A stretch of 64,000 bases of DNA from Candidatus Woesearchaeota archaeon (GTDB taxonomy: Archaea > Nanobdellota > Nanobdellia > Woesearchaeales > GW2011-AR9), in contig JABJOX010000004.1 in assembly GCA_018664115.1 (NCBI GenBank), positions 10,089-74,088 of the forward strand, read 5' to 3'. The notes under the pieces are model-generated. The model had not been told where the DNA came from. It saw nothing but the letters and a program-made list of their open reading frames with translations, and searched no databases. Below, piece after piece: positions 24,093 to 42,495 of this stretch. Position 1 is the first letter of the stretch; the number at the start of each line of letters is the position of its first letter. A program made the position numbers and the translations under genes.

Positions 24093-24794
24093 TCACTTCT
24101 CCCAAAACAATTCTCTATTTACAAAAGCTCTCACTAATTTATCATTAAAAGCAGTATCACCTAATTTTATTCTTTCTGGGTGCCAAGTTACTGCTGCAAT
24201 TGGATAATCCGGATGATAAGCAGCTTCTATTGTTTCATCACTAGAACAGACAGCAAACGCTTTTAATTGCGAAGATAATATTTCGGGAAGAATTGCTTGG
24301 TTATGATAGGAATTCACTAAAACTTTTTCCAAGCCAAAAAATTTTTTAGTTTGATCATCAGTTAAAATAACCTCATGTTCGGCGGCCACATGTTTAACTT
24401 GGCTGTTTGTTTCATCTTTTATACTTTGTAATAAACTACCAGCAAAATGAACATTAAGATAATGTAACCCCCGACAAATACCTAAGATAGGAAGTTTTTT
24501 TTCAATTGCGTAATCGACAATTGCTTTCTCAGTTCTCTCCCGATCTAATGACCATTTGTTAGGAAATTTCATTTCTTGTCCGTACAAGCTGGGATGGACT
24601 CCGTTACCTCCGGTTAGAATTACACCTTCAACACCTAACTCTTCTAAATATTCTGCTGGATTTTCTAAAGAATTAGGAATTGGCACTAAAGTAATTCCAA
24701 ATTTAGGATAATATTGAGTATATTCTGTTTCCAGGATATCAACTGTTCCACCATATTCTGTTTCCAGTTGTTTTGTAGTAATTGCAACTCTCAT
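24093..24794 (-). CDS. Class-I glutamine amidotransferase-like / peptidase C26 (gamma-glutamyl hydrolase-like)
   Basis: KKLPILGICRGLHYLNV (Cys nucleophile) and NSYHNQAI (His). Paralog of 9671-10378. Start is 2 nt after the stop of the 1515-aa gene. Confidence 0.7.
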   Translation of the reverse strand: MRVAITTKQLETEYGGTVDILETEYTQYYPKFGITLVPIPNSLENPAEYLEELGVEGVILTGGNGVHPSLYGQEMKFPNKWSLDRERTEKAIVDYAIEKKLPILGICRGLHYLNVHFAGSLLQSIKDETNSQVKHVAAEHEVILTDDQTKKFFGLEKVLVNSYHNQAILPEILSSQLKAFAVCSSDETIEAAYHPDYPIAAVTWHPERIKLGDTAFNDKLVRAFVNRELFWEK

Positions 24795-24795
24795 T

Positions 24796-27700
24796 TTAAT
24801 CTAATAAGTTCAAATCAATAAACTTTTTAATTTCTCCGTTTTCAGTCCATTTAAGTGCATTTTCATAATCTTCATTTGTGTCAAATTCCATCCATCCCCG
24901 TTGAATCTTATTAGCCATTACTGTCCATCCATTATCAATCCAACTTTGAAGAAGATTAGTCATATTAATTTTTCTTACTGGCTTCCCATCAATTAAAGGT
25001 GTATCCCAATGTGAAGCTTTGATTTTCCTCCAGTGTTCCAAGACTTTTGGAACAAAATTTTTAGAGATGAAAGTTAAACTTGCATCTCTGCCATGTAATC
25101 TAGCTTCGTCAATAACATTTTCCTCTCCAATCTCAATAATAGAACCGTCTGGATTTAAAGTACAAGATTCAGAATCTTCTTTCCAATCACCATTACGGGC
25201 GGTCCAATAATCTTTATAATCAACATCAATTGCCTTACTAAGACTGAAATTTTCTTCCATAATTTGTTTAATAACTTTTGGTTCATGAATTGTGTCTGCG
25301 TAAGCAATTAATATGTCGCTACTGCCATCAAATTCTGCTTCTGCACAGAACAAAGAAGCAACCATATTTGTATTTTCCCAATCAGGATTATTATAATATT
25401 TAATTCCTGGGAAATTTATCTTTTCTGCGTTGAAACCGCGGACAATAGAGATATCAGTAAGGCCGGCTTTTTGAAATGTTTCAATTTGTCTTTGGAGAAG
25501 CGGTTTTCCTGCTAAAGGCAGTAATCCTTTCGGAAGAATTTCTGTATATTTATGTAATCTAGAACCTCGTCCAGCAGCCAAAATTATTACTTTCATTTTT
25601 TTATTCTTTAGTGTTTCATTTTCTTTATCTTCTTTTTTTTCATTACCTTTCAAAGTAGTAATCGGTCTAACCTGCAATAAATGTAGTTCATTATTATAAT
25701 AACACCATTCGCATTCAATTTCTTTGCCATAATCTTGCCGTAAACTTTCTCCTAATTGAACTAACTCTTTAATCTCATCTTCGTTAAGCACTCTGCCAGT
25801 CTTTTTAGAAACTTCTAATGACCCATCCATAATATAGGAGTAAGCTTCCCTTTCTTCATTAATTATATTAGCTTCAATTTCACTCCCATTGATAAAATAT
25901 TGATCAGGTTTGACTTTACCGGATACCACCGATTCACCAACACCAAAATTTGCATCAATCCAAATTCCTTCTTTCAAACTATCGCTAGGGTTTTGTGAGA
26001 ACAAAACCCCTGCTTTTTCACTTTGCAGAAATTCTTGTATAACAACAGAAATGTAAAACTTTTCTTGACTTATTCCTGATTGGTGAGCATAAAGCAAAAC
26101 ATTTTCTTTAAATGCAGAAGCAATACATTCTTTAATTGCTGAAAACAAGCTTTTTTCTTCTATTCCTAAGAGGGTCTTGAATTGGCCAGCAAAACTTGCT
26201 TTACTAGAATCTTCACTAGAGGCTGAACTTCTTACTGCTACCGCTTTTGTGTTTAATTGTTTAAACTGACCCAAAACTTCATTCTTGAATTCGTCGCTAA
26301 ATTGATAATCATTCACAAACTTTCGTAATGCTTTTAATTTTTCTTGTGATTGTTCTGGATAATTAAAATCAATGATGTAATCTTCTTTGTCGTTTAAGAA
26401 TGAATTAATAATTTGGTCATAAGCTCTTCTTGTTACGCTAAACGCTTTTGGAACATTATATCTCATCGAACATTTGGCAAGATTCTTTCCTTTCCCCCCT
26501 ACCAAAGAATATTCCTCTTCATTTATCTCATTTAGACTTGATGTGTATGGGATGCTTCTTAGAAAAAGACTTTTTTTAATTGTTATGAGGGGTTCTTTTT
26601 TATCTTCTGTTTTCTTTAAATCTATACCCTGAATATTTTTGGCTTTAAATTCTTCTGTTTCTCTTTTAGTTAATTTTCTAACAAATTTGTTATAAGTATC
26701 CACTTCAATAAAATCTCCTGTTTTAAAGAAACGTGTTGAGATTCTCGTTCCAACTAAACAAGGGATATTTAATTCTCTGGAAATAATTGCTGCGTGGCTG
26801 GTTATTCCACCTTCATCTGTAATTATTCCTTTAGTTTTGTGAAGAATGGAAACCATTGCTGGATGAGTCATTGTTGTAATATAAATGTCATCAGAGGTCA
26901 TTTCTTTTTTTGTTTTCATTAGCGATTTAATACTATCATCAGTTACTACTAAAGCTCTCCCTTTAACTCTTCCTAAATTTCCGACATCTCCACTTAACCC
27001 TTTAAGATTTTCTGGGATAGTATTAACTTCTTTTGAGTATTTTGGAATAAAGCTATACTCGGTAGATTCTGGGGATATTTCTATGTTAAAATATTGTAAT
27101 CTTTTCTTAACTTCTTCAGGAGTTAGTTTCTTATTTTCTTCTAAGAAATCTTTAACATCTTTTATCCTATAAGAAAACAAAAAGTCTTCAATATTCAGCT
27201 CTAATCTTTTTGCTATCTCTTTGAATAAACCTAAGAATAATAATTCATAACCTGCCCAGATATTTTTATTCTCTAACCTTATCAAAGCAATCTCTTGTAG
27301 ATAAAGGCATAGTTCTTTTAGTTTATTTGAACTTTGTCTGGCAAGACATTCTTCCTGTTTTTGCTTTAGAATCTTGCTTTCATTTATTGTTTTATTAATT
27401 TCATTTTCTAATTCTTGTGCATTAGTCTCGGAAATTTCGTTTTCTAAAAATTGATTGATAATTTCCCATGAATATGTGTTGATAAATCTCCAAGAATATT
27501 TTAATGCATACTCTTTAATGGCTTTTGGACCAACATTTATTTCCCTAATCAGTTTTAATTTGTCTTTTTTTTCTTTCAAAAATAAATCTTCTTTTGTTGG
27601 TGTTGTTAATAATTGTAATAACTCTTCTTTATTATCTGCAATAATCAAGGAAAGAATTCTGTCTTTTACTGCTTTTGTTGGTTCTTCTCGAGAGTATGGA

Positions 27701-29343
27701 AAGAATGAACCATTTTCCATCACTAAATTTATCAGTTGATTATAAATGGGAAATAGTTCTTTATTTGTTTTTAAAATATAATTGATATTTTTGTTTTTTT
27801 CATAAAATGAGAAAAACTTGGCGATTTGTTTTTTATTTTCTTCGACTACCTTTTCCTGTTCACTTTTATTGATTAATTTAAACCCTTCATAATTCCAGCG
27901 TTTAATATCTTCTTGATCAAAATAAACGGTGTGGTGTTTATCTCTAACTTCTGTAAAGATTTTCCCAATAATACTGTTACCAATTTGTTCCGGGAACATT
28001 ATGTATCTTAATGTGTGACATTCCAATGATTGTAATGATGTTGTTCCACCCCAACCATGGTATAAACTTGTAAATAAAGGTTTAACTTGAAAGATAATTA
28101 TTTCATTATTATTATCAATTACGAATTCAATCTTTAACTCTACTCTTGGAATTAATTCTTCAATTTCTTTTACTGCAAAGAATATTTGTTCGGCTTCTGG
28201 AAATAATTGAAACTCTCCTTTGAGTTTTACTTCCTCTAGATTCGAAACATTAATTGTCCCTTTACTTTCTTCTGCGATTGTTTCATCATTTTTACTTAGA
28301 GATGTGTAACTATAATTGATGATATATTTATTAGGATTATTTTTAATCAGGGCTGAACCTACCAGTTTAATATTGTTTGTTTGATTTTGCACCAATACTT
28401 GATGGAAAGAACTTTCTGGCGCTTTATTTTTATAAGAAGCGATGGTTTCATTAATTGCTTCTTCTACCTGAAGATTATCTTTTGGCTCTACATCCAACAA
28501 ACTTTTAAAACAACCACTTAACGTTCTTTCAGTCTGTTCATCAATTACAGAACTCCTAACCACAATTTTTTCTGGAAATTCTTCTTTAATTTTTTCCAAT
28601 ATTTGTTTTTTATCATTTTTCCAATCATTAATGGTAAAAGAAAACAGTTTTTCTACCTTTGATTTAGTTAAAATGGGTTGGAGTGTTTTTAATGTATCTG
28701 CTTTAGTTGAAATGATGTTTTTGTTTTTCCATTCTTTAGCAAAGTTTTCTTTTGTTTCATTATCCTCTTTATTTTCTTTAATTACTGAAGCAAAATGTTT
28801 AATATCCTTAAACTTATCTTTGTTTTCTAATAAGTAATTTATAATTTTAAAATTTGATAATCGTGAATAATAAGGGTGTTGTAATAATTTTCCACCAATA
28901 CTTTTAATGTACTCTGCTCCTGGAATATCTCCCCAGTTATCACCATGAATCAGAATTATTTCTGCATCTGGATATTCTTCATGGATTTTTTGCAGATTAT
29001 CTGTGGGGTCTCGATGATATTGAACTAAAACTCGATCTACAACTTTTAAATTTTCAATTACTGCTTTCCTTTCTTTTAAGTTTGAGATGGGCTTAACCCT
29101 ATATTCTTCCACTGCTTCATCAGTAAAAACCCCTATAATGTTATAATCAGAGACAGACTTAGCAAATTGGATAGACTGCAAATGCCCATAATGAAATAAA
29201 TCTCCTACTACTCCCACATAAGAGATCCGTTTAATTCCCGACTTTTTAATTTCTACATAATCTCCCTCTTGCATTTCAGAATTTTTAGGGATAGTTACAC
29301 ATAACTGATCATTAGATTTATTTTTCCATACAACTCTTTTCAT
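24796..29343 (-). CDS. Giant (1515 aa) multidomain enzyme: N-terminal HIGH-motif cytidylyltransferase + PEP-utilising phosphohistidine domain + PPDK/PEP-synthase ATP-grasp (PPDK_N) domain + MobA/GlmU-like NTP-transferase domain + uncharacterised C-terminal region
   Basis: N-terminal: VGVVGDLFHYGHLQSIQFAK (TagD/ECT-like HxGH). About aa 770-880: GLSGDVGNLGRVKGRALVV...GGITSHAAIISRELNIPCLVG (PEP-utilisers mobile domain). About aa 900-1150: VPKAFSVT...AVAVRSSASSEDSSKASFAGQFKT (PPDK_N hallmark). About aa 1200-1330: MKVIILAAGRGSRLHKYTEILPKGLLPLAGKPLL (NTP_transferase). Confidence 0.8.
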   Translation of the reverse strand: MKRVVWKNKSNDQLCVTIPKNSEMQEGDYVEIKKSGIKRISYVGVVGDLFHYGHLQSIQFAKSVSDYNIIGVFTDEAVEEYRVKPISNLKERKAVIENLKVVDRVLVQYHRDPTDNLQKIHEEYPDAEIILIHGDNWGDIPGAEYIKSIGGKLLQHPYYSRLSNFKIINYLLENKDKFKDIKHFASVIKENKEDNETKENFAKEWKNKNIISTKADTLKTLQPILTKSKVEKLFSFTINDWKNDKKQILEKIKEEFPEKIVVRSSVIDEQTERTLSGCFKSLLDVEPKDNLQVEEAINETIASYKNKAPESSFHQVLVQNQTNNIKLVGSALIKNNPNKYIINYSYTSLSKNDETIAEESKGTINVSNLEEVKLKGEFQLFPEAEQIFFAVKEIEELIPRVELKIEFVIDNNNEIIIFQVKPLFTSLYHGWGGTTSLQSLECHTLRYIMFPEQIGNSIIGKIFTEVRDKHHTVYFDQEDIKRWNYEGFKLINKSEQEKVVEENKKQIAKFFSFYEKNKNINYILKTNKELFPIYNQLINLVMENGSFFPYSREEPTKAVKDRILSLIIADNKEELLQLLTTPTKEDLFLKEKKDKLKLIREINVGPKAIKEYALKYSWRFINTYSWEIINQFLENEISETNAQELENEINKTINESKILKQKQEECLARQSSNKLKELCLYLQEIALIRLENKNIWAGYELLFLGLFKEIAKRLELNIEDFLFSYRIKDVKDFLEENKKLTPEEVKKRLQYFNIEISPESTEYSFIPKYSKEVNTIPENLKGLSGDVGNLGRVKGRALVVTDDSIKSLMKTKKEMTSDDIYITTMTHPAMVSILHKTKGIITDEGGITSHAAIISRELNIPCLVGTRISTRFFKTGDFIEVDTYNKFVRKLTKRETEEFKAKNIQGIDLKKTEDKKEPLITIKKSLFLRSIPYTSSLNEINEEEYSLVGGKGKNLAKCSMRYNVPKAFSVTRRAYDQIINSFLNDKEDYIIDFNYPEQSQEKLKALRKFVNDYQFSDEFKNEVLGQFKQLNTKAVAVRSSASSEDSSKASFAGQFKTLLGIEEKSLFSAIKECIASAFKENVLLYAHQSGISQEKFYISVVIQEFLQSEKAGVLFSQNPSDSLKEGIWIDANFGVGESVVSGKVKPDQYFINGSEIEANIINEEREAYSYIMDGSLEVSKKTGRVLNEDEIKELVQLGESLRQDYGKEIECEWCYYNNELHLLQVRPITTLKGNEKKEDKENETLKNKKMKVIILAAGRGSRLHKYTEILPKGLLPLAGKPLLQRQIETFQKAGLTDISIVRGFNAEKINFPGIKYYNNPDWENTNMVASLFCAEAEFDGSSDILIAYADTIHEPKVIKQIMEENFSLSKAIDVDYKDYWTARNGDWKEDSESCTLNPDGSIIEIGEENVIDEARLHGRDASLTFISKNFVPKVLEHWRKIKASHWDTPLIDGKPVRKINMTNLLQSWIDNGWTVMANKIQRGWMEFDTNEDYENALKWTENGEIKKFIDLNLLD

Positions 29344-29432: not shown

Positions 29433-30320
29433 TCATTTATGTAACATATCAGCAAAAAATCCAAATAAAATGATTTGAATTCCTGTTAACATTAAAAGCA
29501 TACTTAAAATCACTCTGGGAATTCCACCAACGACTCCTGTAAGAATAAAAGTGATGGTGATGTAAATACCCAACAGAAATCCCAATAGAAAAAAAATCCC
29601 ACCAATCTGCCCAAAAAACTTTAATGGTTGATAATCACGATAAATCCTGAATATATTTATCCAAGCTTTAATTGCATACTGGAACGGATTATTAAATAAT
29701 CTACTTTCTCTGGTTTTTCTACAAACAATTGGTACTTCACAGATTTTAAAACCTTGTTTAGCTGCTTTAATAATTTGTTCTTGAGTATAAGTAAATGTAT
29801 TAATGTAATTTATGTCTCTGGCAACTTCTGCAGTAAATGCACGATAACCAGTTGTGGAATCAGTGATTTTAACTTTAGTTAAAGAACTAATCACTTTAGC
29901 AAAAGCCAGATTTCCAATCTTTTTGAGAAACGGCATATGTTTAATGTTTCTCTTAAATCTACTACCTAAAACAAGTTCATAACCAGATTTAACTTTTTCA
30001 ATCATTTCGGGAATATGTTGTGGATGATATTGTCCATCAGCATCAGTATGGACAATAATGTCTGCTTTTCTTTTTAGGCACTCTTGCATCTCTTTTTTGA
30101 AAGTTTCCGCTAAACCCAAATTTCTTCTGTTAGAAACCACTATTGCTCCATCTTTTTCTGCAACTTCTTTTGTTCTATCTTTAGAACCATCATTAAGAAT
30201 CAAGAATTCGTATTTATAATTCGTATTACTCATTACCTCTTTAATCTCTTCTAAAACACGAGGTAATGTTTTCTCTTCATTATATGCTGGTATGGAAATA
30301 ATTATTTTCATTGGTTTCAC
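29433..30320 (-). CDS. Polyprenyl-phosphate glycosyltransferase (GT2, Dpm1/GtrB/ArnC-like) with C-terminal TM helices
   Basis: IIISIPAYNEEKTLPRVLEEI...LILNDGSKD...HTDADGQYHP and two C-terminal TM segments typical of GtrB/ArnC. Confidence 0.8.
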   Translation of the reverse strand: MKPMKIIISIPAYNEEKTLPRVLEEIKEVMSNTNYKYEFLILNDGSKDRTKEVAEKDGAIVVSNRRNLGLAETFKKEMQECLKRKADIIVHTDADGQYHPQHIPEMIEKVKSGYELVLGSRFKRNIKHMPFLKKIGNLAFAKVISSLTKVKITDSTTGYRAFTAEVARDINYINTFTYTQEQIIKAAKQGFKICEVPIVCRKTRESRLFNNPFQYAIKAWINIFRIYRDYQPLKFFGQIGGIFFLLGFLLGIYITITFILTGVVGGIPRVILSMLLMLTGIQIILFGFFADMLHK

Positions 30321-30366: not shown

Positions 30367-31803
30367 TTAGATACTTTCCTCATTGTGAGTGTGGGCTTTA
30401 ACAAGATTGTAAAGTAACATTGTAACCGTCATTGGTCCGACTCCTCCTGGAACAGGAGTAATAAACGAAGTTTTTTCTTTAACATTCTCAAAATCAACAT
30501 CTCCAACAATCTTACCTTCTTCTGTTCGGTTCATACCCACATCAATGATTATTGCTCCTTCTTTAACCATTTCTGCAGTGAGTAATTTTTCTTTACCTAC
30601 TGCAACAACAATTATGTCTGCAGTTTTAGTATGTTCAGCAATATCTTTAGTTCTACTATGGGCCATGGTTACAGTAGCATTTTTCATTAACATCAATTGA
30701 GCCATTGGTTTTCCGACAATATTACTTCTCCCAATAATAACAGCTTTTTTTCCTTCTAAATCGAGATTGTAGTGTTCAATCATTTTCATTATTCCGTAAG
30801 GTGTAGCAGGAATCATATCTTTCTCTTCATCAGACAATCCTAAGAAAATTTTGCCCATATTTATGGGATGAAAACCATCCACATCTTTTTTCGGATTAAT
30901 ACTATCAATCACTTTATTCTCATTAATTTGTTTTGGTAATGGTAATTGGACAATAAATCCGTCAACATTTTCATCTTTATTTAGCTTCTCAATCAAACCC
31001 AACAATTCACTTTCTTTTGTTTCTTCATTTAGTTTGTAATGTCGCGCTTTTACTCCAATCTTTTCAGCAGTTTTAAGTTTTTTTTTAATATAAATTTTAG
31101 ATGCCGAATTTTCTCCTACAGAAACAATTGCCAATGTTGGTTTGTCTTTTAGCTTTTTTACTTTTTCTTTAAGTTCTATTAATATTCTCTCAGATACTTC
31201 TTTTCCCGATAATAATGGTCTCATTTTATTTTCTTTTTTATTCTGATTAGTTTTAATAATCCTCTTTTCTGTTATAATATAATCCACCGGCACATCATGG
31301 CTTTTAACTTTTATGGAATCAACTATCTGGAAATCGTAAGCAATTCCCACTTTAATTCCTTTAAAATCTTTAAGAAATCGGTCATAATAGCCTAAACCAT
31401 GACCCAATCTATTTCCAGCTAAATCAAAAGCAACTCCAGGAACAAAAACAATGTCAACCTCTTCTTTATTAATCTCTAAACAATTTTTCTTTGGTTCCAT
31501 GATTTCAAATGCGCCTTCTTCCAAATCTTCACTTAAATTATTTATTTGATAGATTTTCATTGAAAAATCATCTTTATTTGTTTTTGGAAGAATTACTTTT
31601 TTTACTTGGAAATTTAATAACGAATTCATTAAACCATTCAAGTTAGCTTCATTTCCTTTTTGATAATAGAACATTGTTGAATTAGATTGATTGAAAAAAG
31701 AAAATGAGGATATTCTTTCTATAATCTGTTTACTTTTTAACATTACTTCTTCATCACTCATAGAATCTCTTTCTAACTTAATATTTTCTCTTAATTCTTT
31801 CAT
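30367..31803 (-). CDS. folD: Fusion: 5-formyltetrahydrofolate cyclo-ligase (N-terminal) + bifunctional methylene-THF dehydrogenase/methenyl-THF cyclohydrolase FolD (C-terminal)
   Basis: N-terminal half has the MTHFS motif GNRLGHGLGYYDRF. C-terminal half MRPLLSGKEVSERI...VGENSASKIYIKKK...DGFIVQLPLP...GGVGPMTVTML matches FolD. Confidence 0.8.
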   Translation of the reverse strand: MKELRENIKLERDSMSDEEVMLKSKQIIERISSFSFFNQSNSTMFYYQKGNEANLNGLMNSLLNFQVKKVILPKTNKDDFSMKIYQINNLSEDLEEGAFEIMEPKKNCLEINKEEVDIVFVPGVAFDLAGNRLGHGLGYYDRFLKDFKGIKVGIAYDFQIVDSIKVKSHDVPVDYIITEKRIIKTNQNKKENKMRPLLSGKEVSERILIELKEKVKKLKDKPTLAIVSVGENSASKIYIKKKLKTAEKIGVKARHYKLNEETKESELLGLIEKLNKDENVDGFIVQLPLPKQINENKVIDSINPKKDVDGFHPINMGKIFLGLSDEEKDMIPATPYGIMKMIEHYNLDLEGKKAVIIGRSNIVGKPMAQLMLMKNATVTMAHSRTKDIAEHTKTADIIVVAVGKEKLLTAEMVKEGAIIIDVGMNRTEEGKIVGDVDFENVKEKTSFITPVPGGVGPMTVTMLLYNLVKAHTHNEESI

Positions 31804-31916
31804 TTTTAACTTAAACGAACAAAATCACTTTAAAAACTTATGATACATTAACTTTAATATATTAATCACTCTTCCAAAAAGTATATAAAATAAAAGATTA
31901 GGGTTTCTTTGAAGAA

Positions 31917-32693
31917 ATGGAAAAAGAAATAGAAAAAACAATAGAAAAAGAAATAGTGAAAGATATAGGGAAAGAAGTAGATCATTCAGAAATCGAAGTT
32001 TCAGTTATATTTCCTACCTATAACGAAGCAGAAAACATAATCCCATTAATTCAGAGAACACAACAAGCTTTAGTTAATCATTCTAAAGAAATTATTATTG
32101 TTGATGATAACAGTCCTGACCTTACCTGGAAAATTGCAGAAGATTTAAACTCTTTTGATGTAAAAGTAATTAGGAGATTAGAAGATCGAGGTTTAGTCAA
32201 ATCAATTTCAAATGCCATCAAAGAAGCAAAGGGTAAATATGTTGTTTGGATGGATGCCGATCAATCAATGCCTCCAGAATTAATTCCGCGAATGTTACAG
32301 AAATTTAATAATTATGATATTGTTGTTGGTTCAAGATATGCTAAAGGCGGTAAAGATAAACGGCCTTTGTTAAGGGTTGTATCAAGTAGATTTATCAACG
32401 TTTTTACTAATATCATCCTTAACTTTAATGTGTTGGATTATGATAGTGGTTTTATTGCTGCAAAAAAAGATCTTCTTGAAAATATCACTCTTTCTGATTC
32501 TGCTTATGGAGAGTATTGTATCGAGTTTCTTTATGCTGCAGGAAAGAAAGGTTACAAAATCAAAGAAGTAGGATATCCTTTTGTTGATAGAAGAGCCGGA
32601 CAATCAAAAACTGCTGATACTTTATCTGGCCTTTTCAAGTATGGGATGTTATATCTGAAAAGAATAATTGAACTGAGATTTAAAAAGATTTAA
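31917..32693 (+). CDS. Polyprenyl-phosphate glycosyltransferase (GT2, Dpm1/ArnC-like, soluble-type)
   Basis: VSVIFPTYNEAENI...IIVDDNSPDLTWKIA...VWMDADQSMPPE. Paralog of 41765-42493 (shared IIVDDNSPDLTWK). Confidence 0.8.
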   Translation: MEKEIEKTIEKEIVKDIGKEVDHSEIEVSVIFPTYNEAENIIPLIQRTQQALVNHSKEIIIVDDNSPDLTWKIAEDLNSFDVKVIRRLEDRGLVKSISNAIKEAKGKYVVWMDADQSMPPELIPRMLQKFNNYDIVVGSRYAKGGKDKRPLLRVVSSRFINVFTNIILNFNVLDYDSGFIAAKKDLLENITLSDSAYGEYCIEFLYAAGKKGYKIKEVGYPFVDRRAGQSKTADTLSGLFKYGMLYLKRIIELRFKKI

Positions 32694-32726
32694 TTTTTAC
32701 AAAAGTTATCATTTGATAAACAAAAG

Positions 32727-33575
32727 ATGAAAGATATTATCGTTTTCACTCAGAATACAATGGCTTCTATAGTGGCTACAAGAGAAGTCTTAATAAATAA
32801 TTCAGACAGAATCAAAGCAATTGTCCTTGCCAGTCAATTTAAAGGAGAATCATTTACTGATCAACTAAAAGTTGCCTATAAACTTACAAAAAAATCTTCG
32901 TTTAGTTTTTTCTTTTACAAGTTATTAGAATCAAAAGTTTATAACTATCTTTTGTGGGGTCATAAATTAATAAAAACAAAAAATTATCAAAATGATTCTG
33001 CTAAAACTATTGAAGATCTCGCGGGCCAATATAATATTCCTATCATTAAAACAACCAACCTTAGTGATAATGATTTCTTAATTAACATTAAAGAATTAAA
33101 TCCAACATTTGTACTTTGTTTAGTGGCACAAATTTTGAGAAAGAATGTTTTTGAAACTCTTGGCAATAAGTTAATTAATGCTCATGGTTCTTATCTCCCA
33201 GAATATAGGGGTGCCGCTCAATATTTCTGGTATTTATTTAATGGGGATCGGCAATATGGGGTGACTGTTCATTTTATGGAAGCTGGATTGGATACTGGAG
33301 ATATTATTTTTCAAAGAAAATTTGATTATAATCAAAATGTCTCGATGTATGAATTACATCATAAATTAGCTACTTCATTTGGTTTTATGTTAAATGAGTT
33401 TATCAATAATTATGCTAATGACAATGACGACGATCATAATAATGAACTGATCTCATTTAAACAAGATGAAGAAAAAGCTACGATGACTAGGATGCCCACC
33501 AAAGAAGATTTTAGTCAGTTAAAGAAAAAAGGAAACAAGTTAATAACTTTTAAAGATTTTTTTAAATATATATAA
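32727..33575 (+). CDS. N10-formyl-THF-dependent formyltransferase (Fmt/ArnA-N/VioF-like sugar N-formyltransferase)
   Basis: Formyl_trans_N motifs: INAHGSYLPEYRGAA (H...SLLP..RG) and HFMEAGLDTGDII (catalytic Asp). Confidence 0.8.
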   Translation: MKDIIVFTQNTMASIVATREVLINNSDRIKAIVLASQFKGESFTDQLKVAYKLTKKSSFSFFFYKLLESKVYNYLLWGHKLIKTKNYQNDSAKTIEDLAGQYNIPIIKTTNLSDNDFLINIKELNPTFVLCLVAQILRKNVFETLGNKLINAHGSYLPEYRGAAQYFWYLFNGDRQYGVTVHFMEAGLDTGDIIFQRKFDYNQNVSMYELHHKLATSFGFMLNEFINNYANDNDDDHNNELISFKQDEEKATMTRMPTKEDFSQLKKKGNKLITFKDFFKYI

Positions 33576-33595
33576 TACATACAAAAAGGTGAACT

Positions 33596-35065
33596 ATGAA
33601 TTTGGAAAAAAATAAGAAAATTGTTTATTTGATTTTATTTCTAATTGTAATTTTAGGTGCCACCTTACGTTTTTATGATTTAAATACAGAATCTTTATGG
33701 ACAGATGAGATGGTTTCTTTGAACCACCTTAATAAAAATAGTCTTAAAGGGTTGGTTGATTCTGTTATTTACATGGAGTTAATGCCTCCCGGTTATTTTA
33801 TTATCTTAAAAGGATGGGTGGATATTTTTGGCAATACTGAATTTTCTTTAAGATTCTTATCTGCTTTTTTTGATAGTCTATCCATCATCTTAATTTATCT
33901 TTTTGGGGCAAGACTTTTTAATAAGAAAGTGGGCCTAATTAGTGCTTTAATTTTCTCAACAACAATGTTACAAATTGTCTATGCTCAAGAAGCAAGGCCT
34001 TATGCTTTATTTGGGTTTTTAGTTTTGCTTTCAACTTACTTGTTTGTTATTTTGTTCAAGAATCCTCTCAACAAAAGAAAGAAATTTTCTCTTCTGTTTG
34101 GCTATTCATTAGTAAATGCCTTACTACTATATACTAACTACATGGCTTTATTTGTAATTATTTTCCATTCTTTAATTTTATTTCTTTATTACAAGAAAAA
34201 CAAATCTTACCTGAGTTTAAAAAATCACTTTTCTTCGGCAATAATTTCAATCATTCTCTTTATTCCCGGATTGCAAATATTATTTATTCAAACAATGATT
34301 CGACATCCCAGTTTACAAGAAAGTTTAATTTTAAGGGGTGTACCAGTTTTCTTAAGTAACTTAGGTGTCGGTTTTTATTTACTCCCGTTAATTTTACTTT
34401 TATTATTTACGTTCATCATTTTCATTTTATTTAGAAAATATTCATTTAAAATGCCTAAAAATAAAACATTTATTTGGGTTACATTTATTTCTTTAGCACT
34501 TATTAGTATTGCTCATTTATTTTTAATAGATACCATCACAAGATCTTTTGCTTTAGTAAGACATTCTTTTTTTATTATTCCTTTTTTTTATATTGTAATT
34601 GCAAAAGCAATTAGTTTATTAAAATCAAAGAGAACTCAAACAACAATTGTTTTTTTAATCTTAATTTTTAACCTTTTTACTCTAACTATATATTACCATG
34701 AAACTACCAAAGCCCCCTGGGATAAAGCAGTAATCAAAATTAAAGAACATTCTTCAAGTAAACCTTTGATTTTATTTGATCGTTCTGGTTCTAACATTCT
34801 TTTGTTCGATTATTATTGGAATCATGAATTGTATAGTAAATATGACCAGATTAAGCTTACTTGGGAAAATAAAAGAGAACTAATGAAAATAGATGAGTCT
34901 CAACTATTTAATTTATTAAATCAGAAAAAAGAATTCTGGCTTGTTTCTTCAAGAAATATAAAAACTGGCGATTATTATGTTAATTTATTGAAAGATAAAT
35001 ATAACTTAATTTATTCGGAAAGTTATAAAGAATTAGATTTATATTATTACAATTCTATAATTTGA
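33596..35065 (+). CDS. GT-C fold membrane glycosyltransferase (ArnT/PMT-like, GT83/GT39-like)
   Basis: 489 aa polytopic protein with an acidic motif in the first extracytoplasmic loop (LWTDEMVSL) and a hydrophilic C-terminal domain. Follows ArnC-like and formyltransferase genes. Confidence 0.6.
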   Translation: MNLEKNKKIVYLILFLIVILGATLRFYDLNTESLWTDEMVSLNHLNKNSLKGLVDSVIYMELMPPGYFIILKGWVDIFGNTEFSLRFLSAFFDSLSIILIYLFGARLFNKKVGLISALIFSTTMLQIVYAQEARPYALFGFLVLLSTYLFVILFKNPLNKRKKFSLLFGYSLVNALLLYTNYMALFVIIFHSLILFLYYKKNKSYLSLKNHFSSAIISIILFIPGLQILFIQTMIRHPSLQESLILRGVPVFLSNLGVGFYLLPLILLLLFTFIIFILFRKYSFKMPKNKTFIWVTFISLALISIAHLFLIDTITRSFALVRHSFFIIPFFYIVIAKAISLLKSKRTQTTIVFLILIFNLFTLTIYYHETTKAPWDKAVIKIKEHSSSKPLILFDRSGSNILLFDYYWNHELYSKYDQIKLTWENKRELMKIDESQLFNLLNQKKEFWLVSSRNIKTGDYYVNLLKDKYNLIYSESYKELDLYYYNSII

Positions 35066-35146: not shown

Positions 35147-37099
35147 ATGGTTAGTATAATAACAATTATTTTGTTTTTCTTGTATACTTGGGGCTTAGGT
35201 TTTACAGTCACCTATTTCGTAAAACAATCTGAAAATACTTTAGAAAGACATTTGATGAATATTGGGATTGGTTTAGGTGTTTTCGCAATATTATCAATCA
35301 TTCTTAACTTTTTTCGAGTTCCATTGGATTGGAAAATATTTTTGGTTTTGAGTTTAATCATTCCGGTTTACGATTTAATTAAGAAGTATAAGAATAAACA
35401 ATTGTCTTTTCCAAATTTTAAATTAACTAAATCAAATCTTGCAATTTTGATTGTACTCTTAATTTTCTTAACTTCTTTTTACATTTATACTAAAGGTGCT
35501 TTTAGTTATCCTTATTTAGAAGATGAAGACCCTTGGGGCCATGCTATTGGAGTAAAATATGTTGCATTAGAAAAAGATGCTTATGACCCTCCATTAATTG
35601 GCGAGGACCTTCAGGGACAAGATTTAGTTCTTTCTTATATTGATCCTTATCCCCCCGCTTATGACGTTTTTTTAGGAATATTGCATCAAACATCTCCAGA
35701 TTTGACTTGGACCATGAAATTTTTTAATGCTTTAATAATTTCTTTGGGTTTCATTTTTTTCTTTTTTTTTGCCTGGCAATTTATAGGAAATAGGAATAAA
35801 GCTTTATTTGCAACTTTTATTTTGGCAGCAATTCCTTGTTATTTAAGCCATTTTATCTGGGCACATTCATTGGTTGTCACATTATTTTTTCCGACAATGT
35901 ACGCTTTTGAAATGATTAAAAAAGATAGAAAGTGGATGTTTGTTGCTTTAATTCTGGTTGCTGCAATTTGGGTTTCTCAAAATTTATCACAACCAATAAA
36001 AATCACAATGATGATTCTATTATATTTAATTGTTATTTCTATAGTTCAAAAGAAATTTTTCACAAAAGGTTTTATTGCTTTATTTGGAGGTATGATTTTG
36101 TCCCAAGTTTGGTGGGGCGCCATGGTGAAAAAATATACATTAAAAGGTTTTATTAGAATTTGGCAGGGGAATTTGTTAGATTCTGGAGGAACTTCTTCTT
36201 CAACTTTGATTAGCTTATCTAACAAACTCATTTCTGTTCTTCAATCAATCGTTAATCCTGGGGGAAGTGGATCAAGAGCTTATCTTTTTAATGATTTTTT
36301 TATTGCTAAATCTCAAAATATGATTAATAATCCAATCGGTGTTGGGATTGTTATTTCATTATTGGTTTTAATAGGATTTATCTTTGTAATCTGGAAACAC
36401 AAATCTGCTATTGTTAAATCAAAACAGACTTGGGTTATTGTTACTTTATTTTGGTTAATTTTCACTTTTTGGGGTGTAAATGGCCAAACTTTTCCTATCT
36501 CTGTTGCTCGAGGACCTTTTAGGATTTGGATGTTAATGGCTATTCCAATTGCTTTAATTTCTGTTGAAGGGTTGTACTTTGTTAAAGCATTATTCAAACA
36601 AAAACATTTGAAAATTTTAGTTGTAATTTTAGTTGTTACTGGAATTATTTTTACTTCCGCTCAACAAAAATATGAACATAATACTTCTATTTGGCCAACT
36701 TCTGGTTCTTATTCTGGTGCTCATCAGTCTGAACCTTTTGAATATGGTTTGTGGTTCAATTCAATTCCAGATACCACTTCTGTTTTTACATATTCTCCCC
36801 GAGATAAATTAACTATTGGTTATGGAAAATATAGTTGTGCTTGGTGTCAAAACATTTTGGATTTTAGAGAAAACATACTACATGAAAATGCAGAAGAACT
36901 TCATCAATTTTTAAAAGAAAATCAATATCAATTTTTAATAATTAATGCTCGAATGGAAAATAAATATTTCAAGGGTATATTTGGAGAAGAAGAAACAAAT
37001 AAATTGCTTCAAGTTCGTTATAATGAAATAATCAATTCGGAACTTTTTATTCCGGTTTATCAAAAAGAAAATATGTTTGTGGTGTTTGAAGTAAAATGA
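35147..37099 (+). CDS. Large polytopic membrane protein, putative GT-C-like glycosyltransferase
   Basis: 650 aa, more than 12 TM segments, acidic loop motif YPYLEDEDPWGH after the third TM, hydrophilic C-terminal domain. Confidence 0.4.
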   Translation: MVSIITIILFFLYTWGLGFTVTYFVKQSENTLERHLMNIGIGLGVFAILSIILNFFRVPLDWKIFLVLSLIIPVYDLIKKYKNKQLSFPNFKLTKSNLAILIVLLIFLTSFYIYTKGAFSYPYLEDEDPWGHAIGVKYVALEKDAYDPPLIGEDLQGQDLVLSYIDPYPPAYDVFLGILHQTSPDLTWTMKFFNALIISLGFIFFFFFAWQFIGNRNKALFATFILAAIPCYLSHFIWAHSLVVTLFFPTMYAFEMIKKDRKWMFVALILVAAIWVSQNLSQPIKITMMILLYLIVISIVQKKFFTKGFIALFGGMILSQVWWGAMVKKYTLKGFIRIWQGNLLDSGGTSSSTLISLSNKLISVLQSIVNPGGSGSRAYLFNDFFIAKSQNMINNPIGVGIVISLLVLIGFIFVIWKHKSAIVKSKQTWVIVTLFWLIFTFWGVNGQTFPISVARGPFRIWMLMAIPIALISVEGLYFVKALFKQKHLKILVVILVVTGIIFTSAQQKYEHNTSIWPTSGSYSGAHQSEPFEYGLWFNSIPDTTSVFTYSPRDKLTIGYGKYSCAWCQNILDFRENILHENAEELHQFLKENQYQFLIINARMENKYFKGIFGEEETNKLLQVRYNEIINSELFIPVYQKENMFVVFEVK

Positions 37100-37353
37100 A
37101 TGAAAAAATAAATTTATGGCAAAAAGGATTGTTGATTGCGTTATATGGTTTAATTATTTTAATGGTTATATTTTCAATTGGAGCTACAAAAAATCTTGGT
37201 GAAGATGGCTATAACAATTGTATTCAAAAAAAATGTGATAAAAAAGGAGAAGATTTTTGTCATAAATTTAGAGAAATAAATAATTGTTGTTTAGGTGCGG
37301 GAGGAAATGTTGCTCAATCAAATAGTGGTTTAATTTGTATTTTTGATAAATAA
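37096..37353 (+). CDS. Small membrane-anchored cysteine-rich protein (85 aa)
   Basis: N-terminal TM helix followed by 8 Cys in 50 residues (CIQKKCDKKGEDFCHKF...NNCCLGAGG...LICIF). ATGA overlap with the upstream gene. Confidence 0.4.
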   Translation: MNEKINLWQKGLLIALYGLIILMVIFSIGATKNLGEDGYNNCIQKKCDKKGEDFCHKFREINNCCLGAGGNVAQSNSGLICIFDK

Positions 37354-37405: not shown

Positions 37406-39133
37406 ATGAGATTTAATAAAAATAATTTTTACTTGATCTTAATTTTTTTGTTAGCATTAGTTATAAAAATAATTACTGCTTTTTATACTCCTCTTGATAC
37501 TGATGAAATGATTTATTCTCTTATTCCTCTTAATATCATTTCTGCAGAAAGATTAGGTAATGTTTTTCAATCTCATCTTTATTTTTATTTTGCAGATATT
37601 GGATACCAAATCGCAGGGGGTTTAAGTCCTTTTACAGCAAGGTTACCTTCGATTATTTTTGGTTCTTTTTTGGTATTTATTATATACCTGGTTGCTTTTA
37701 ATTTGTTTAAGAATAGAAAGGTTGCATTAACTTCTTCTTTTTTGTTTGCGCTTTCTGGATATGTGATTAGATACAATATTGAAACTGATATGCCCGCATT
37801 TTTTTTCAGCCTGTTAAGTATTTTATTTTTTATAAAAGGTTTACGTGGAGACTATAGAAATTTTTATTTATCCTCATTATTTCTTGCTTTTAGCGTACTT
37901 ATTAAAAATATTGTGCTTATATTTATTCCCGTATATTTACTCATTTTGATATTTTATTATTTTAAGAAGAAAACACCCCATTTAACTTTGAATAAAGCAA
38001 TTAAAGAATTATTTTTTAATAAGAAAATAATTTTGAGATCTCTCATATGTTGTAGTATATTTGTTTTAATTATATCACCCGTATTAATATATAATTATCT
38101 GATTTACAAATATAATGGATTTACAGATATTTATTTTGCTTCTTTTGGATTTGGAAAAGATCTTTATAGTAGTATTCAAAATAAACCTTGGAATTTATTA
38201 AAATTGACGGCTTCTGCTTCCAATTTTATTGTTAATTTTTTTAAGAAAGATGGAATTATTTTTATTTTTGGTTTATTTGGGGCTTTTTTTTCTTTTCGGA
38301 AAAATAAATATTTTACCTCTTTACTTTTACTTTCTTTAGTTACATTATTTGTTTTTGTTGGTGGAATTACTGGTGTTGGTTCTCACGCTCTTTGGGTTCC
38401 TATAGTATTAAGTATTTTTTCTGGTTATTCGTTAGTGTTAATTTCTAAAAAAGTTTCATCATTTTTTAATATTAAATTCTTTCTCAAAGGAATCTTAGTC
38501 ATTGCTTTAATACTTAGTATTTTTTCTATTAAAGAAGTAGTTGAATTGAGTAATCATTCTAGTACTCTTCAACTTTGGGATGTGGTTCACGAACAGATTC
38601 CTTCTAATGCAATTGTGGTTATGGATCCTCGTATTTATCGAGGATCATATGCTTGGGTTTTTAATGACCGAGATTATCTTGAAGGAACTCAATTCTTTAC
38701 TTTTTTAGAATATATTGAAAGTTCTTCTGAGGAGAAACAGAATATTCCTTTTTATTATATTGAGTGTAGGCCGGGAAGCTATTGTGGATGGAAGCCAGAA
38801 GATTTTAATAATATTGAAAGTTATAGTAAACAGTTAAGTGAATTTCTATTGCCAAAAATGAAGAAAATAGCAGAAATAAAATCAGAACATAATTATTGGA
38901 TTTATCAAGGTACAATTCTTGCACCAAAATTTGTTCATGAATCAATTATTAAACCGGAATTTTGGTTTTATCCAGTTGGGTGGTGGAAAAATAGTCAAAT
39001 TATTGATGATTACAATCCTGTTGGAATAGACATTTTATTTAATAAATTTGGATTTGTAATTTTTTATCTTACTGTTTTTTGTTCTTTATTAACTATTTTC
39101 TTTGTAATTTACTTAGTAATCACGGAAAAATGA
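37406..39133 (+). CDS. GT-C fold membrane glycosyltransferase (ArnT/PMT-like), paralog of 33596-35065
   Basis: 575 aa polytopic. First-loop motif YTPLDTDEMIYSL parallels LWTDEMVSL of the 489-aa protein. Confidence 0.55.
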   Translation: MRFNKNNFYLILIFLLALVIKIITAFYTPLDTDEMIYSLIPLNIISAERLGNVFQSHLYFYFADIGYQIAGGLSPFTARLPSIIFGSFLVFIIYLVAFNLFKNRKVALTSSFLFALSGYVIRYNIETDMPAFFFSLLSILFFIKGLRGDYRNFYLSSLFLAFSVLIKNIVLIFIPVYLLILIFYYFKKKTPHLTLNKAIKELFFNKKIILRSLICCSIFVLIISPVLIYNYLIYKYNGFTDIYFASFGFGKDLYSSIQNKPWNLLKLTASASNFIVNFFKKDGIIFIFGLFGAFFSFRKNKYFTSLLLLSLVTLFVFVGGITGVGSHALWVPIVLSIFSGYSLVLISKKVSSFFNIKFFLKGILVIALILSIFSIKEVVELSNHSSTLQLWDVVHEQIPSNAIVVMDPRIYRGSYAWVFNDRDYLEGTQFFTFLEYIESSSEEKQNIPFYYIECRPGSYCGWKPEDFNNIESYSKQLSEFLLPKMKKIAEIKSEHNYWIYQGTILAPKFVHESIIKPEFWFYPVGWWKNSQIIDDYNPVGIDILFNKFGFVIFYLTVFCSLLTIFFVIYLVITEK

Positions 39134-40147: not shown

Positions 40148-40618
40148 GTGGAAAATTCAATAGAAAGAATTGAACGTAATGGTAAGATTCTCGCAATTGT
40201 TACTCGAGCAAAAGCATTGCAAGAATTGGAACAATCTGGTAAAAGCATGCTATTTGTTAGTCCGGACGAATTTTCATTTCAAGTTGGAATACATAATCGA
40301 CCAAAGGGCGATATTTGCACTCCTCATGTCCATATTCCTTTCTCTCAACTTACAAACTTTCCAGTGCAAGAATTTTTTTATATAATCTCAGGTAGTGTTA
40401 AAATTGATATTTATAATCCTGATGATAACAATTATGATCTTAAAGTTTCTGAAGTAACAATCAATGAGGGAGATTCTATAATTCTTAATTGTGGCCATGG
40501 CTTTACTTTCTTGGAAGATAATACTAAAGTGATTGAATTGAAACAAGGCCCTTATCGGGGCCGAGAGAACGAGAAACGAGATGTTAAAGAAACAAATAAA
40601 GAAGGTGATTACATATGA
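40148..40618 (+). CDS. Cupin-fold protein, putative NDP-sugar 3,4-ketoisomerase (FdtA/QdtA/WxcM-like). GTG start.
   Basis: About 150 aa with a cupin-like His pattern (TPHVHIPF...GHGFTF). Its stop overlaps the start of the DegT aminotransferase (ATGA). FdtA-FdtB-like gene order. Confidence 0.5.
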   Translation: MENSIERIERNGKILAIVTRAKALQELEQSGKSMLFVSPDEFSFQVGIHNRPKGDICTPHVHIPFSQLTNFPVQEFFYIISGSVKIDIYNPDDNNYDLKVSEVTINEGDSIILNCGHGFTFLEDNTKVIELKQGPYRGRENEKRDVKETNKEGDYI

Positions 40619-41781
40619 GTCAAGATTTTATCCCTGTTTGTGAACCCACTCTGAGTGGAAATGAATTAAAATATGTTACTGAAGCTGTGCAAACTGGTTG
40701 GATTTCTTCCGGCGGATCTTTCTTAAAACAGTTTGAAGAAAAGTTTGCTGCTTATTGTGGTGTCAAACATGGAATTAGTTGTACAAATGGAACAACTGCT
40801 TTACATTTGGCGATTGAAGCTTTGGGTATTGGTAAGAGTGATGAAGTTATTACTCCTACATTTACCATGGCTGCCTCTTCCAATGCGATCATTTATTCAG
40901 GGGCTAAACCCGTACTTATTGATTCTGAATTAGATACTTGGAACATGGACATCAATAAGATTGAAGAAAAAATTACCGAGAAAACAAAAGCAATCATGGT
41001 GGTCCATACTTATGGCCATCCTGTTGATATGGATAGAGTAAAAGAAATTGCTGACAGATACAATTTGTTTATTATTGAAGATGCTGCTGAAGCGCATGGT
41101 GCCGAATATAAAGGAAGAAAAGCTGGCAGTTTAAGCGATGTGGCTTGTTTTAGTTTTTATGCTAATAAAATTATTACTACTGGAGAAGGTGGGATGGTTA
41201 TTACAAACAATGACAAAATTGCCGAAGAAGCCAGAAAATTAAGAAACCATTATTTTGGCGAACCAAGATTTTTGCATCAGAAAGTAGGATATAATCATCG
41301 CTTGACAAATCTTCAAGCAGCTATTGGTCTTGCTCAAGTTGAGAAATTAGATGATTATGTTGGGATGAGAAGAAATAATGCTCATCTTTACAATGAACTG
41401 CTTAAAGATGTTCCAGGGATAACTTTACCGCCAGAAAAAGATTGGGCCAAGAATGTTTATTGGATGTATGGAGTTTTAGTACAACCAGAATTTGGAATGA
41501 CTATGCCCGAACTTTGTAAAAAATTAAAAGAAAGAGGAATTGATACTAGAACTTTCTTTATTGGGATGCATAAACAACCTGCTTATTTTGGCGATGATCC
41601 AAGATTTCCTGACACTACTGGAAATTATCCCGGTTCAGATGAATTAGAAGCTAAAGGATTCTATTTGCCTTCTACTAGCCATTTAACTAATAAGCAAATA
41701 ATTTTCATTGTTAATCAGATAAAAGAGATTCAGGAAGATAATAGAGAAAGGAATAGAGAAGAGAATGCAACTAAACAATAA
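40615..41781 (+). CDS. DegT/DnrJ/EryC1/StrS-family PLP-dependent sugar aminotransferase (ArnB/FdtB-like)
   Basis: GWISSGGSFLKQFEEKFA...NGTTALHLA...HTYGHP...FSFYANKIITTGEGG (PLP-Lys region). Confidence 0.9.
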   Translation: MSQDFIPVCEPTLSGNELKYVTEAVQTGWISSGGSFLKQFEEKFAAYCGVKHGISCTNGTTALHLAIEALGIGKSDEVITPTFTMAASSNAIIYSGAKPVLIDSELDTWNMDINKIEEKITEKTKAIMVVHTYGHPVDMDRVKEIADRYNLFIIEDAAEAHGAEYKGRKAGSLSDVACFSFYANKIITTGEGGMVITNNDKIAEEARKLRNHYFGEPRFLHQKVGYNHRLTNLQAAIGLAQVEKLDDYVGMRRNNAHLYNELLKDVPGITLPPEKDWAKNVYWMYGVLVQPEFGMTMPELCKKLKERGIDTRTFFIGMHKQPAYFGDDPRFPDTTGNYPGSDELEAKGFYLPSTSHLTNKQIIFIVNQIKEIQEDNRERNREENATKQ

Positions 41782-42493: not shown

Positions 42494-42495
42494 CT

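Follow-up and report, generated by a model that had tools for sequence, protein, structure and literature searches.

A 64,000-nt stretch of DNA from a Candidatus Woesearchaeota archaeon (the window; ca. 30% G+C) was analysed, with the focus on positions 30367-35065. This segment encodes a fusion of 5-formyltetrahydrofolate (5-formyl-THF) cyclo-ligase (MTHFS) with FolD, a family 2 glycosyltransferase (GT2) resembling dolichyl-phosphate-mannose synthase (DPMS), an N10-formyl-THF-type formyltransferase (FT) and a GT-C glycosyltransferase. From the comparison of sequences and gene order, we lean moderately towards the view that these genes belong to a module conserved in DPANN archaea, which would assemble a lipid-linked N-formyl amino-6-deoxyhexose and pass it to an outer-face acceptor, with the formyl group supplied by a co-located folate unit. 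If true, this would be the first case in Archaea of an Arn-style pathway, in which an amino sugar is N-formylated, carried on a polyprenyl phosphate and transferred on the outside by a GT-C enzyme. Surface glycans are the site of contact between an episymbiont and its host, and an unusual sugar with a formyl group could play a part in how the cells attach or are recognised. No earlier description of the module or of the MTHFS-FolD architecture was found in the literature searched.

Gene order of the formyltransferase module

Domains were called with Pfam and NCBIfam, structures were modelled with AlphaFold2 (AF2) and compared using Foldseek, and transmembrane (TM) helices were predicted from sequence. 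The original prediction, made from the sequence of this DNA before any database search, had named the four genes as MTHFS-FolD, GT2, FT and PMT_2 GT-C, and Pfam agreed with all four identities and coordinates; the motifs that it had quoted (GHGLGYYDR, HGSYLPEYRG and DTGDII) are all found in the sequence. It had also called the genes consecutive. They do adjoin one another, but the fusion gene (30367-31803) lies on the minus strand and diverges from the GT2-FT-GT-C genes over a 113-bp AT-rich intergenic region (31804-31916, read from the sequence). This spacer contains TATA-like runs ca. 27-34 nt upstream of both start codons, TTTTTAAA on the minus strand and GTATATAAAA on the plus strand, identified by pattern only. 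On the plus strand follow the DPMS-like GT2 (31917-32693; Pfam Glycos_transf_2, E 1e-32), a soluble protein of the catalytic domain only without a TM helix, the 282-aa FT (32727-33575; Formyl_trans_N, E 6e-21), which has only the N-domain, and the GT-C glycosyltransferase (33596-35065; Pfam PMT_2, E 2e-12) with ca. 11 TM helices.

Seventeen loci, including the window, were read or scanned, with FT identities of 34-91%; the bacterial loci L024-L094 obtained from a genome scan were partial Fmt-like matches and were excluded from this comparison. The DPMS-like GT2 adjoins FT in 17 of the 17 loci, an orthologue of the PMT_2 GT-C adjoins FT in 13, and two further membrane proteins of 650 aa and 85 aa follow in 11. 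A cupin gene paired with a DegT-family aminotransferase gene was present in nearly all 17. Genes that are dispersed in the window form contiguous runs elsewhere, namely Gmd-cupin-DegT-GT2-FT-GT-C in L011, cupin-DegT-GT2-FT-GT-C in L003 and SDR-cupin-DegT-GT2-FT in L010 (SDR, short-chain dehydrogenase/reductase). Furthermore, the distant locus L013, whose FT is 37% identical, keeps Gmd, cupin, DegT, GT2, FT, PMT_2 and proteins of 646 aa and 83 aa. Since the DegT, cupin and Gmd of the window are orthologous to these contiguous operon genes (50-76%, 33-66% and 59-64% identity, respectively), they would belong functionally with FT even though they lie 5-15 kb away from it.

A B12-binding radical-SAM protein encoded in the window at 11438-12907 (plus strand) is 39% identical to the product of L013 9468-10883, which sits inside the module there, between GT2 and an LPG_synthase_TM protein. 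This protein may methylate a sugar or lipid.

Formyltransferase, sugar and lipid carrier

A Candidatus Woesearchaeota metagenome-assembled genome (MAG) encodes a protein 100% identical to FT, and this protein occurs on 28 contigs, mostly marine. The catalytic triad of FT, Asn151/His153/Asp189, is invariant among 28 homologues, and the AF2 model of FT (pLDDT 92.7) has the formyltransferase fold. An insertion of ca. 46 residues between strands 2 and 3 forms an aromatic-rich helical hairpin (residues 43-82), in which F61, Y64, K65 and E68 are invariant. The Formyl_trans_C domain (PF02911) of Fmt and ArnA was not found by Pfam in FT, where ca. 65 residues follow the catalytic domain, and no TM helix was predicted. 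When the profile of the FT family was scored against PDB chains, which gives a ranking by bit score and not a tree, the FT domain of ArnA (ArnA-FT) came first (102 bits), followed by Fmt (67-89), WbkC (68), PseJ (62), WlaRD (58), QdtF (57) and FdtF (50). Fmt and ArnA-FT tied by Foldseek, and the NCBIfam scores were 71 bits for ArnA (cut-off 777) and 81 bits for TIGR00460 (Fmt; cut-off 201). A grouping with Fmt, which the original prediction had singled out as fatal to it, was not seen (102 bits for ArnA-FT vs at most 89 for Fmt), and the missing Formyl_trans_C, the archaeal host and the glycosylation operon context rule out that FT is an Fmt. By these scores, the family is the orthologue of no characterised sugar formyltransferase.

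Close relatives of FT (at least 34% identity, ca. 275 aa) form ca. 36 clusters, and among GTDB genomes true members were found only in DPANN-type (Woesearchaeota/Nanoarchaeia) MAGs. Several MAGs that bear the module (L018-L023) are titled 'uncultured Methanosarcinales archaeon'; these labels look doubtful because the gene content and synteny match those of the Woesearchaeota and Nanoarchaeia loci. A profile search widened the family to 217 clusters at E < 1e-30, nearly all of 250-290 aa. If the proposed model holds, these would be short sugar formyltransferases of a family that has yet to be characterised. Fused members (P0295, P0309, P0345 and P0397) have PilZ, LPG_synthase_TM or GT2 as partners, the GT2-FT fusion being P0397. 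One PilZ-FT fusion is from an Omnitrophota bacterium, and the cluster names are otherwise little informative on taxonomy. The hairpin and the fusions hint at action close to the membrane and, in bacteria, at control by cyclic di-GMP.

These features also bear on the substrate of FT. Instead of a nucleotide sugar, FT might formylate an amino sugar already linked to dolichyl phosphate (Dol-P) at the membrane, or a precursor of a nonulosonic acid (NulO) such as 5-N-formyl-legionaminic acid. N-Formyl sugars do occur in archaeal glycans, 5-N-formyl-legionaminic acid having been found in Halorubrum (PMC6137143). The family-specific aromatic-rich hairpin could sit on a membrane, LPG_synthase_TM or GT2 is the fusion partner in FT relatives, NeuB/NulO genes are present in the window and in L006, and the DegT protein scores well to LegC. 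However, most FT loci (L003, L010, L011 and L013) lack NulO genes, whereas GT2 and GT-C are constant; FT has no predicted TM helix, and its characterised relatives all act on soluble substrates. In addition, NulOs are activated as CMP derivatives, and their transfer does not proceed through Dol-P GT2/GT-C routes. We therefore regard such a substrate as decidedly unlikely and retain a nucleotide-linked amino sugar as the predicted substrate.

The original prediction depended on an enzyme that generates a 4-keto sugar, and two paralogous candidates were found, both of the GDP-mannose 4,6-dehydratase (Gmd) type. These SDRs, at 48276-49409 (minus strand) and 44834-45946 (plus strand), scored 408 and 381 bits against TIGR01472, just under its cut-off of 415, vs 71-101 bits against RmlB. 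For the gene at 48276-49409, the best PDB matches are all Gmd (376 bits), and the first gene of the L011 and L013 operons, also an SDR gene, is its orthologue (62-64% identity). The DegT-family aminotransferase (40615-41781, plus strand), which Pfam found where the original prediction had placed it, is closest to GDP-perosamine synthase (3BN1/3DR4; 324 bits, E 1e-95), ahead of QdtB (241 bits) and ArnB (198 bits) among PDB chains; NCBIfam assigned it 347 bits for the LegC family, with other DegT enzymes also close. In L004 (17374-19695) and L010 (5054-7429), the DegT gene is split by an intein (PT-HINT/Intein_splicing). Immediately 5' of the aminotransferase, as in every locus, is the cupin (40148-40618, plus strand). 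It was assigned to the WbuC family of metallocupins from a weak NCBIfam match (26.5 bits; cut-off 42) and from named homologues, such as that of L003, which has PF19480 and which JGI annotates as WbuC. Its H60, H62, Q74, E75 and H117 are invariant, and the Foldseek matches of its AF2 model (pLDDT 91) are headed by cysteine dioxygenase, D-lyxose isomerase and quercetinase. The cupin might epimerise or isomerise the keto-sugar. Taken together, the Gmd-type SDRs, the perosamine-synthase-like DegT, the DPMS-like GT2 and the genes for a phosphomannomutase (PMM; 2982-3743) and a mannose-1-phosphate guanylyltransferase-like protein (3746-4483) suggest that the sugar is probably a GDP-mannose-derived amino-6-deoxyhexose, with N-formylperosamine as the simplest candidate.

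The cupin had been described as FdtA-like in the original prediction, which offered a 3-formamido-3,6-dideoxyhexose as an alternative product: the cupin would be a 3,4-ketoisomerase, amination would take place at C3 as for mycosamine or Qui3N, and formylation and all other steps would proceed as proposed above. The constant position of the cupin between dehydratase and aminotransferase is that of FdtA/QdtA in known clusters, its structural matches include metal-dependent sugar isomerases (D-lyxose isomerase), and QdtB is a fairly good match of DegT. FdtA, on the other hand, is metal-free, whereas the cupin is of the WbuC type with a conserved His/His/Glu/His metal site; the FdtA Pfam family (PF05523) did not match it, and neither FdtA nor QdtA was among its top 50 Foldseek matches in the PDB, so that the FdtA-like designation did not hold. 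In addition, the best match of the aminotransferase is a C4 enzyme, and the SDRs are of the Gmd and not the RmlB type, which weakens the dTDP-linked version of this sugar and implies that any such sugar would be GDP-linked. A 3-formamido sugar therefore appears unlikely, and a perosamine-type product fits better.

The resemblance to the Arn (PmrHFIJKLM) system of E. coli and Salmonella, on which the original prediction was built, is real at the level of logic. Arn encodes, and the module is predicted to encode, an aminotransferase, a 10-formyl-THF-dependent FT, a GT2 that loads a polyprenyl phosphate and an outer-face GT-C enzyme; this set recurs among the loci, with DegT-GT2-FT(-GT-C) contiguous in L003, L010 and L011, and the order DegT-GT2-FT-GT-C parallels arnB-arnC-arnA-(arnD)-arnT. 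Among solved relatives, ArnA-FT scores best with the FT family, and BLASTP identities are 34% to ArnB, 33% to ArnC and 26% to ArnA-FT. These points would also fit a true Arn pathway, in which UDP-glucuronic acid (UDP-GlcA) made by Ugd is decarboxylated, aminated and formylated to UDP-Ara4FN (Ara4N, 4-amino-4-deoxy-L-arabinose), loaded on a polyprenyl phosphate and moved as Ara4N. The ugd gene (8046-9368) is indeed in the window upstream of the segment, as had been pointed out, but it is 22 kb off, behind more than 15 genes and outside the conserved module. No UDP-GlcA decarboxylase was found among the SDRs of the window by tblastn with the dehydrogenase domain of ArnA (ArnA-DH) or by profile scores, which largely refutes this pathway; the sole weak ArnA-DH match (62623-63561, 25% identity) scored 176/173 bits for GalE/LegB vs 71/54 bits for UDP-xylose synthase/ArnA. 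Likewise, tblastn gave no match to ArnD or ArnE/F in the window. DegT is much nearer to perosamine synthase than to ArnB, GT2 is nearer to DPMS than to ArnC, the SDR linked to the operon is Gmd, and Archaea lack lipid A, which therefore cannot be the acceptor. The module also differs from Arn in having GDP-mannose-type chemistry (Gmd, Per-like and DPMS-like proteins) and folate genes alongside, and an FT that lacks the C-terminal subdomain and carries the 46-residue helical insertion. Thus, the Arn-like logic of the original prediction stood while its Ara4N product did not, and we consider a genuine Ara4N pathway very improbable.

With respect to the GDP-mannose-derived sugar proposed here, a close parallel is the Gmd-Per-WbkC set for the Brucella O-antigen, which likewise groups genes for Gmd, for an aminotransferase of the perosamine-synthase type and for an N-formyltransferase. 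Unlike in that set, FT of the module is not a WbkC orthologue, and an extra metallocupin is encoded between Gmd and the aminotransferase. Furthermore, the Brucella O-antigen is polymerised in the cytoplasm on bactoprenol, whereas the module is predicted to deliver its sugar from a Dol-P monosaccharide carrier by a GT-C enzyme.

The best PDB match of the GT2 at 31917-32693 is the DPMS of P. furiosus (5MLZ; 134 bits, E 5e-38, residues 23-234), compared with 50 bits for GtrB and 47 bits for ArnC. It is, however, only 258 aa long vs 374 aa for the P. furiosus enzyme, and no hydrophobic segment was predicted in it, so that anchoring in the membrane as in archaeal DPMS was not found. In the GT-C protein at 33596-35065, an LWTDE motif after the first TM helix is kept in orthologues and aligns with LWQPDE of ArnT; the ArnT HMM matched weakly (27 bits vs a cut-off of 567), and BLASTP against ArnT gave no match. 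A DPMS-like GT2 beside a PMT_2 GT-C resembles the systems of P. furiosus (DPMS), Haloferax (AglD/AglR/AglS) and eukaryotes (Dpm1/PMT), the first two of which are archaeal like the module; as in these systems, a single sugar would be delivered from Dol-P on the outside. In Haloferax, this Dol-P-sugar and GT-C route has been described for AglD, AglR and AglS (PMC3871713). The module differs from them in that GT2 has no TM helices, FT is encoded between GT2 and GT-C, and amino-sugar genes are attached. Because of FT and these amino-sugar genes, the predicted donor is a modified 6-deoxy-mannose-type sugar and not mannose.

Downstream of GT-C are a 650-aa protein with ca. 12 TM helices and an EDEDPW motif (35147-37099, plus strand), for which 52-69% identical orthologues were found at 11 loci, and an 85-aa single-TM protein (37096-37353, plus strand), which by synteny always lies 3' of it. 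The 650-aa protein had no Pfam or NCBIfam match and is better conserved than FT, with 57% identity in the distant L013. No other membrane components of the module are as well conserved as the products of these overlapping genes (35147-37353), which may represent an undescribed GT-C-like enzyme pair. The two genes are followed by that for a second GT-C-like protein with a TDEM motif (37406-39133, plus strand), which is 28% identical to the first and whose homologues carry PMT/PMT_2. Farther downstream, the region at 41765-42930 (plus strand) encodes a paralogous GT2 (45% identical to that at 31917-32693) and a GtrA-like protein with four TM helices (42496-42930), a candidate flippase component. 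It is followed by a TylC3-type C-methyltransferase (43007; Methyltransf_13/14), as had been predicted.

Based on these assignments, the pathway would be as described below. GDP-mannose, possibly supplied by PMM and the guanylyltransferase-like protein, would be converted by Gmd or its paralogue to GDP-4-keto-6-deoxymannose, which the metallocupin may epimerise or isomerise before the perosamine-synthase-like aminotransferase produces a GDP-amino-6-deoxyhexose. FT would N-formylate this compound with 10-formyl-THF, and the DPMS-like GT2 would load the formamido sugar on dolichyl phosphate. Once flipped, possibly with the help of the GtrA-like protein, the sugar would be transferred by GT-C to a surface protein, glycan or lipid, a step that may also involve the 650-aa/85-aa pair and the second GT-C. 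On the folate side, the MTHFS part would convert 5-formyl-THF to 5,10-methenyl-THF, which the cyclohydrolase of FolD would turn into 10-formyl-THF, while the dehydrogenase of FolD can bring in methylene-THF from serine hydroxymethyltransferase (SHMT).

One-carbon genes and the MTHFS-FolD fusion

The 478-aa fusion protein contains MTHFS (residues 1-189) and FolD (from Met194), and both enzymes are complete in one frame. Pfam placed 5-FTHF_cyc-lig at residues 2-179 (E 1e-41), THF_DHG_CYH at 198-309 (E 3e-37) and THF_DHG_CYH_C at 312-473 (E 2e-69), covering positions 2-186 of 186, 1-115 of 115 and 1-158 of 160 of the respective models, and the GxGxGxYDR and PGGVGP motifs are kept. The junction comprises MTHFS residue 189, a nine-residue linker (TNQNKKENK) and the start methionine of FolD. 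The fusion is not an assembly artefact, since the identical protein occurs on 25 contigs and relatives of 82-86% identity are fused as well. Among the best 120 FolD clusters listed, MTHFS and FolD are fused in five. The fused genes, namely those of the window and L015, of L020 and of L006/P0084, occupy three separate branches of the FolD tree, each with unfused sister loci, which implies that the fusion arose at least three times independently; all three are in the same genomic context.

Folate genes (MTHFS, FolD and sometimes SHMT and FolC) were found within 10 kb of FT in 10 of 16 informative loci, and in 9 of these 10 they are divergently adjacent to GT2-FT. The original prediction had suggested checking whether the fusion recurs beside sugar formyltransferases in relatives; folate genes do recur beside FT, with fused forms in L015, L020 and L006. 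In the fullest form (L001, L005 and L022), GT2-FT is abutted by MTHFS-SHMT-FolD, all on one strand, and by a FolC-like gene on the opposite strand; L019 has the same layout without FolD. MTHFS and FolD are separate neighbours without SHMT in L004, where the gap is 56 bp, and in L016 and L011. In L011, a defence/restriction island (1876-6168; Fic, EcoRI-type methylase, GmrSD/HNH and PD-(D/E)XK) has been inserted and accounts for the 9 kb that separate the folate genes from the sugar module. On the same strand as the folate genes, 28-46 bp downstream in 9 loci, follows a GT2 with TM helices. In the window, this is the AglJ/Dol-P-hexose-transferase-like protein at 29433-30320 (minus strand; Pfam Glycos_transf_2), which has three predicted C-terminal TM helices and starts 46 bp downstream of the fusion gene; its NCBIfam scores, all below cut-off, were 148 bits for AglJ, 115 for Dol-P hexose transferase and 70 for ArnC. 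Its orthologues directly downstream of FolD in the 9 loci are 66-93% identical. Judging from these layouts, the fusion is a recent and simple end-to-end join of neighbouring genes, which in this lineage would have followed the loss of the intervening SHMT.

The domain order of the fusion is that of the reactions, from 5-formyl-THF through methenyl-THF to 10-formyl-THF, and channelling of the intermediate through the fusion is a reasonable inference. Consecutive one-carbon activities that share 5,10-methenyl-THF are likewise fused in FolD itself and in eukaryotic C1-THF synthase, although the partner here is different, being MTHFS. The repeated fusion amounts to a natural experiment, suggesting that coupling helps the conversion of 5-formyl-THF or methenyl-THF to 10-formyl-THF, and the protein could serve as a compact 10-formyl-THF-making enzyme.

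Several observations weigh against the proposed module and its product. DegT and Gmd of the window lie 5.5-15 kb from FT, with the second GT2, a GNAT protein and the C-methyltransferase in between, and the window may thus serve the synthesis of more than one sugar. Depending on what the cupin does, the amino group could be at C3 or C4, and more than one configuration is conceivable. The FT family is far from WbkC, the known GDP-perosamine formyltransferase (68 bits vs 102 bits for ArnA-FT), a sequence search of solved GT-C structures gave no match to the GT-C protein, and neither a deformylase nor an acceptor was identified. On the folate side, SHMT and FolC were not found in the window by tblastn, FolD, SHMT and MTHFS may also serve housekeeping such as dTMP synthesis, and no folate genes were present within 10 kb of FT in 6 of the 16 loci (L003, L009, L010, L013, L018 and L023).

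This last observation is also what would be expected if the folate genes were ordinary housekeeping genes, for instance SHMT and FolD for thymidylate and amino acids, that are neighbours of FT by chance, the fusion having no tie to FT. The FolD half is typical, being 55-57% identical to bacterial enzymes, and synteny among relatives can last by descent alone. Folate one-carbon genes have, moreover, been noted in some Woesearchaeota without a link to glycans (PMC5994134). However, in 9 loci the folate genes lie between two glycosylation genes, pointing away from GT2-FT and in the same direction as the AglJ-like GT2, and this arrangement persists at FolD identities of only 42-48%. FolD and MTHFS yield 10-formyl-THF as their specific product, and the adjacent FT is an obvious user of it in an archaeon that needs no Fmt; the three independent fusions all arose in this context. 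A chance neighbourhood thus seems improbable, albeit less so than the other alternatives considered here, and a folate unit that serves FT is the explanation we prefer.

A more far-reaching proposal, which we regard as tentative and somewhat doubtful, is that a clade of genome-reduced DPANN archaea keeps SHMT, FolD, MTHFS and FolC mainly to formylate a surface sugar, these enzymes being wired into a glycosylation operon; selection for efficient delivery of 10-formyl-THF would have fused MTHFS with FolD at least three times, and the Arn-like route through Dol-P and GT-C would be one not described before in Archaea. Members of this clade do not depend on fMet initiation and probably not on de novo purine synthesis either. 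The module model itself, if true, would already offer a concrete reason why host-dependent DPANN archaea retain folate one-carbon enzymes.

Other genes in the window

An Rfam scan for THF or ZTP riboswitches near the folate genes found none and matched only 5S rRNA; the stand-alone 5S rRNA gene (4571-4686, plus strand; 66.9 bits) lies between sugar-nucleotide genes. A tRNA scan of the window found none.

The region at 24093-29343 (minus strand) encodes a Peptidase_C26 protein whose best match is gamma-glutamyl-CDP-amidate hydrolase (80 bits; cut-off 250). Peptidase_C26 genes were considered as folate gamma-glutamyl hydrolases and were rejected, being gamma-glutamyl-CDP-amidate-hydrolase-like and tied to the neighbouring PPDK-like fusion. 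This neighbour is a 1515-aa fusion of CTP_transf_like, PEP-utilizers, PPDK_N and NTP_transf_3, and the pair, which is kept in L001 and L005, is reminiscent of Campylobacter Cj1416-Cj1418. The region may represent an archaeal phosphoramidate (MeOPN-like) pathway.

At 21177-23978 (minus strand), a 933-aa protein combines a pyruvate-kinase barrel, PUA_2, ATP-sulfurylase and adenosine-5'-phosphosulfate (APS) kinase, so that an ATP-regenerating domain is attached to a 3'-phosphoadenosine-5'-phosphosulfate (PAPS) synthase. The same fusion, but without APS kinase, is present in L004. A sulfotransferase (15102-16019, plus strand) is encoded near the PAPS-synthase fusion, which suggests sulfated glycans. 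Between 18896 and 21108, a bacterial-type CMP kinase gene (cmk, 180 bits) precedes two paralogous and divergent genes for CDP-alcohol phosphatidyltransferases, and these genes may take part in CDP-linked head-group or glycan phosphodiester chemistry. Finally, a NulO cluster of the pseudaminic/legionaminic type with NeuB, WbqC and PIG-L occupies 54125-63986 (minus strand) and includes two fusions, CTP_transf_3-PseG-like (55493-57217) and hexapeptide-acetyltransferase-PseC-like (61043-62620).

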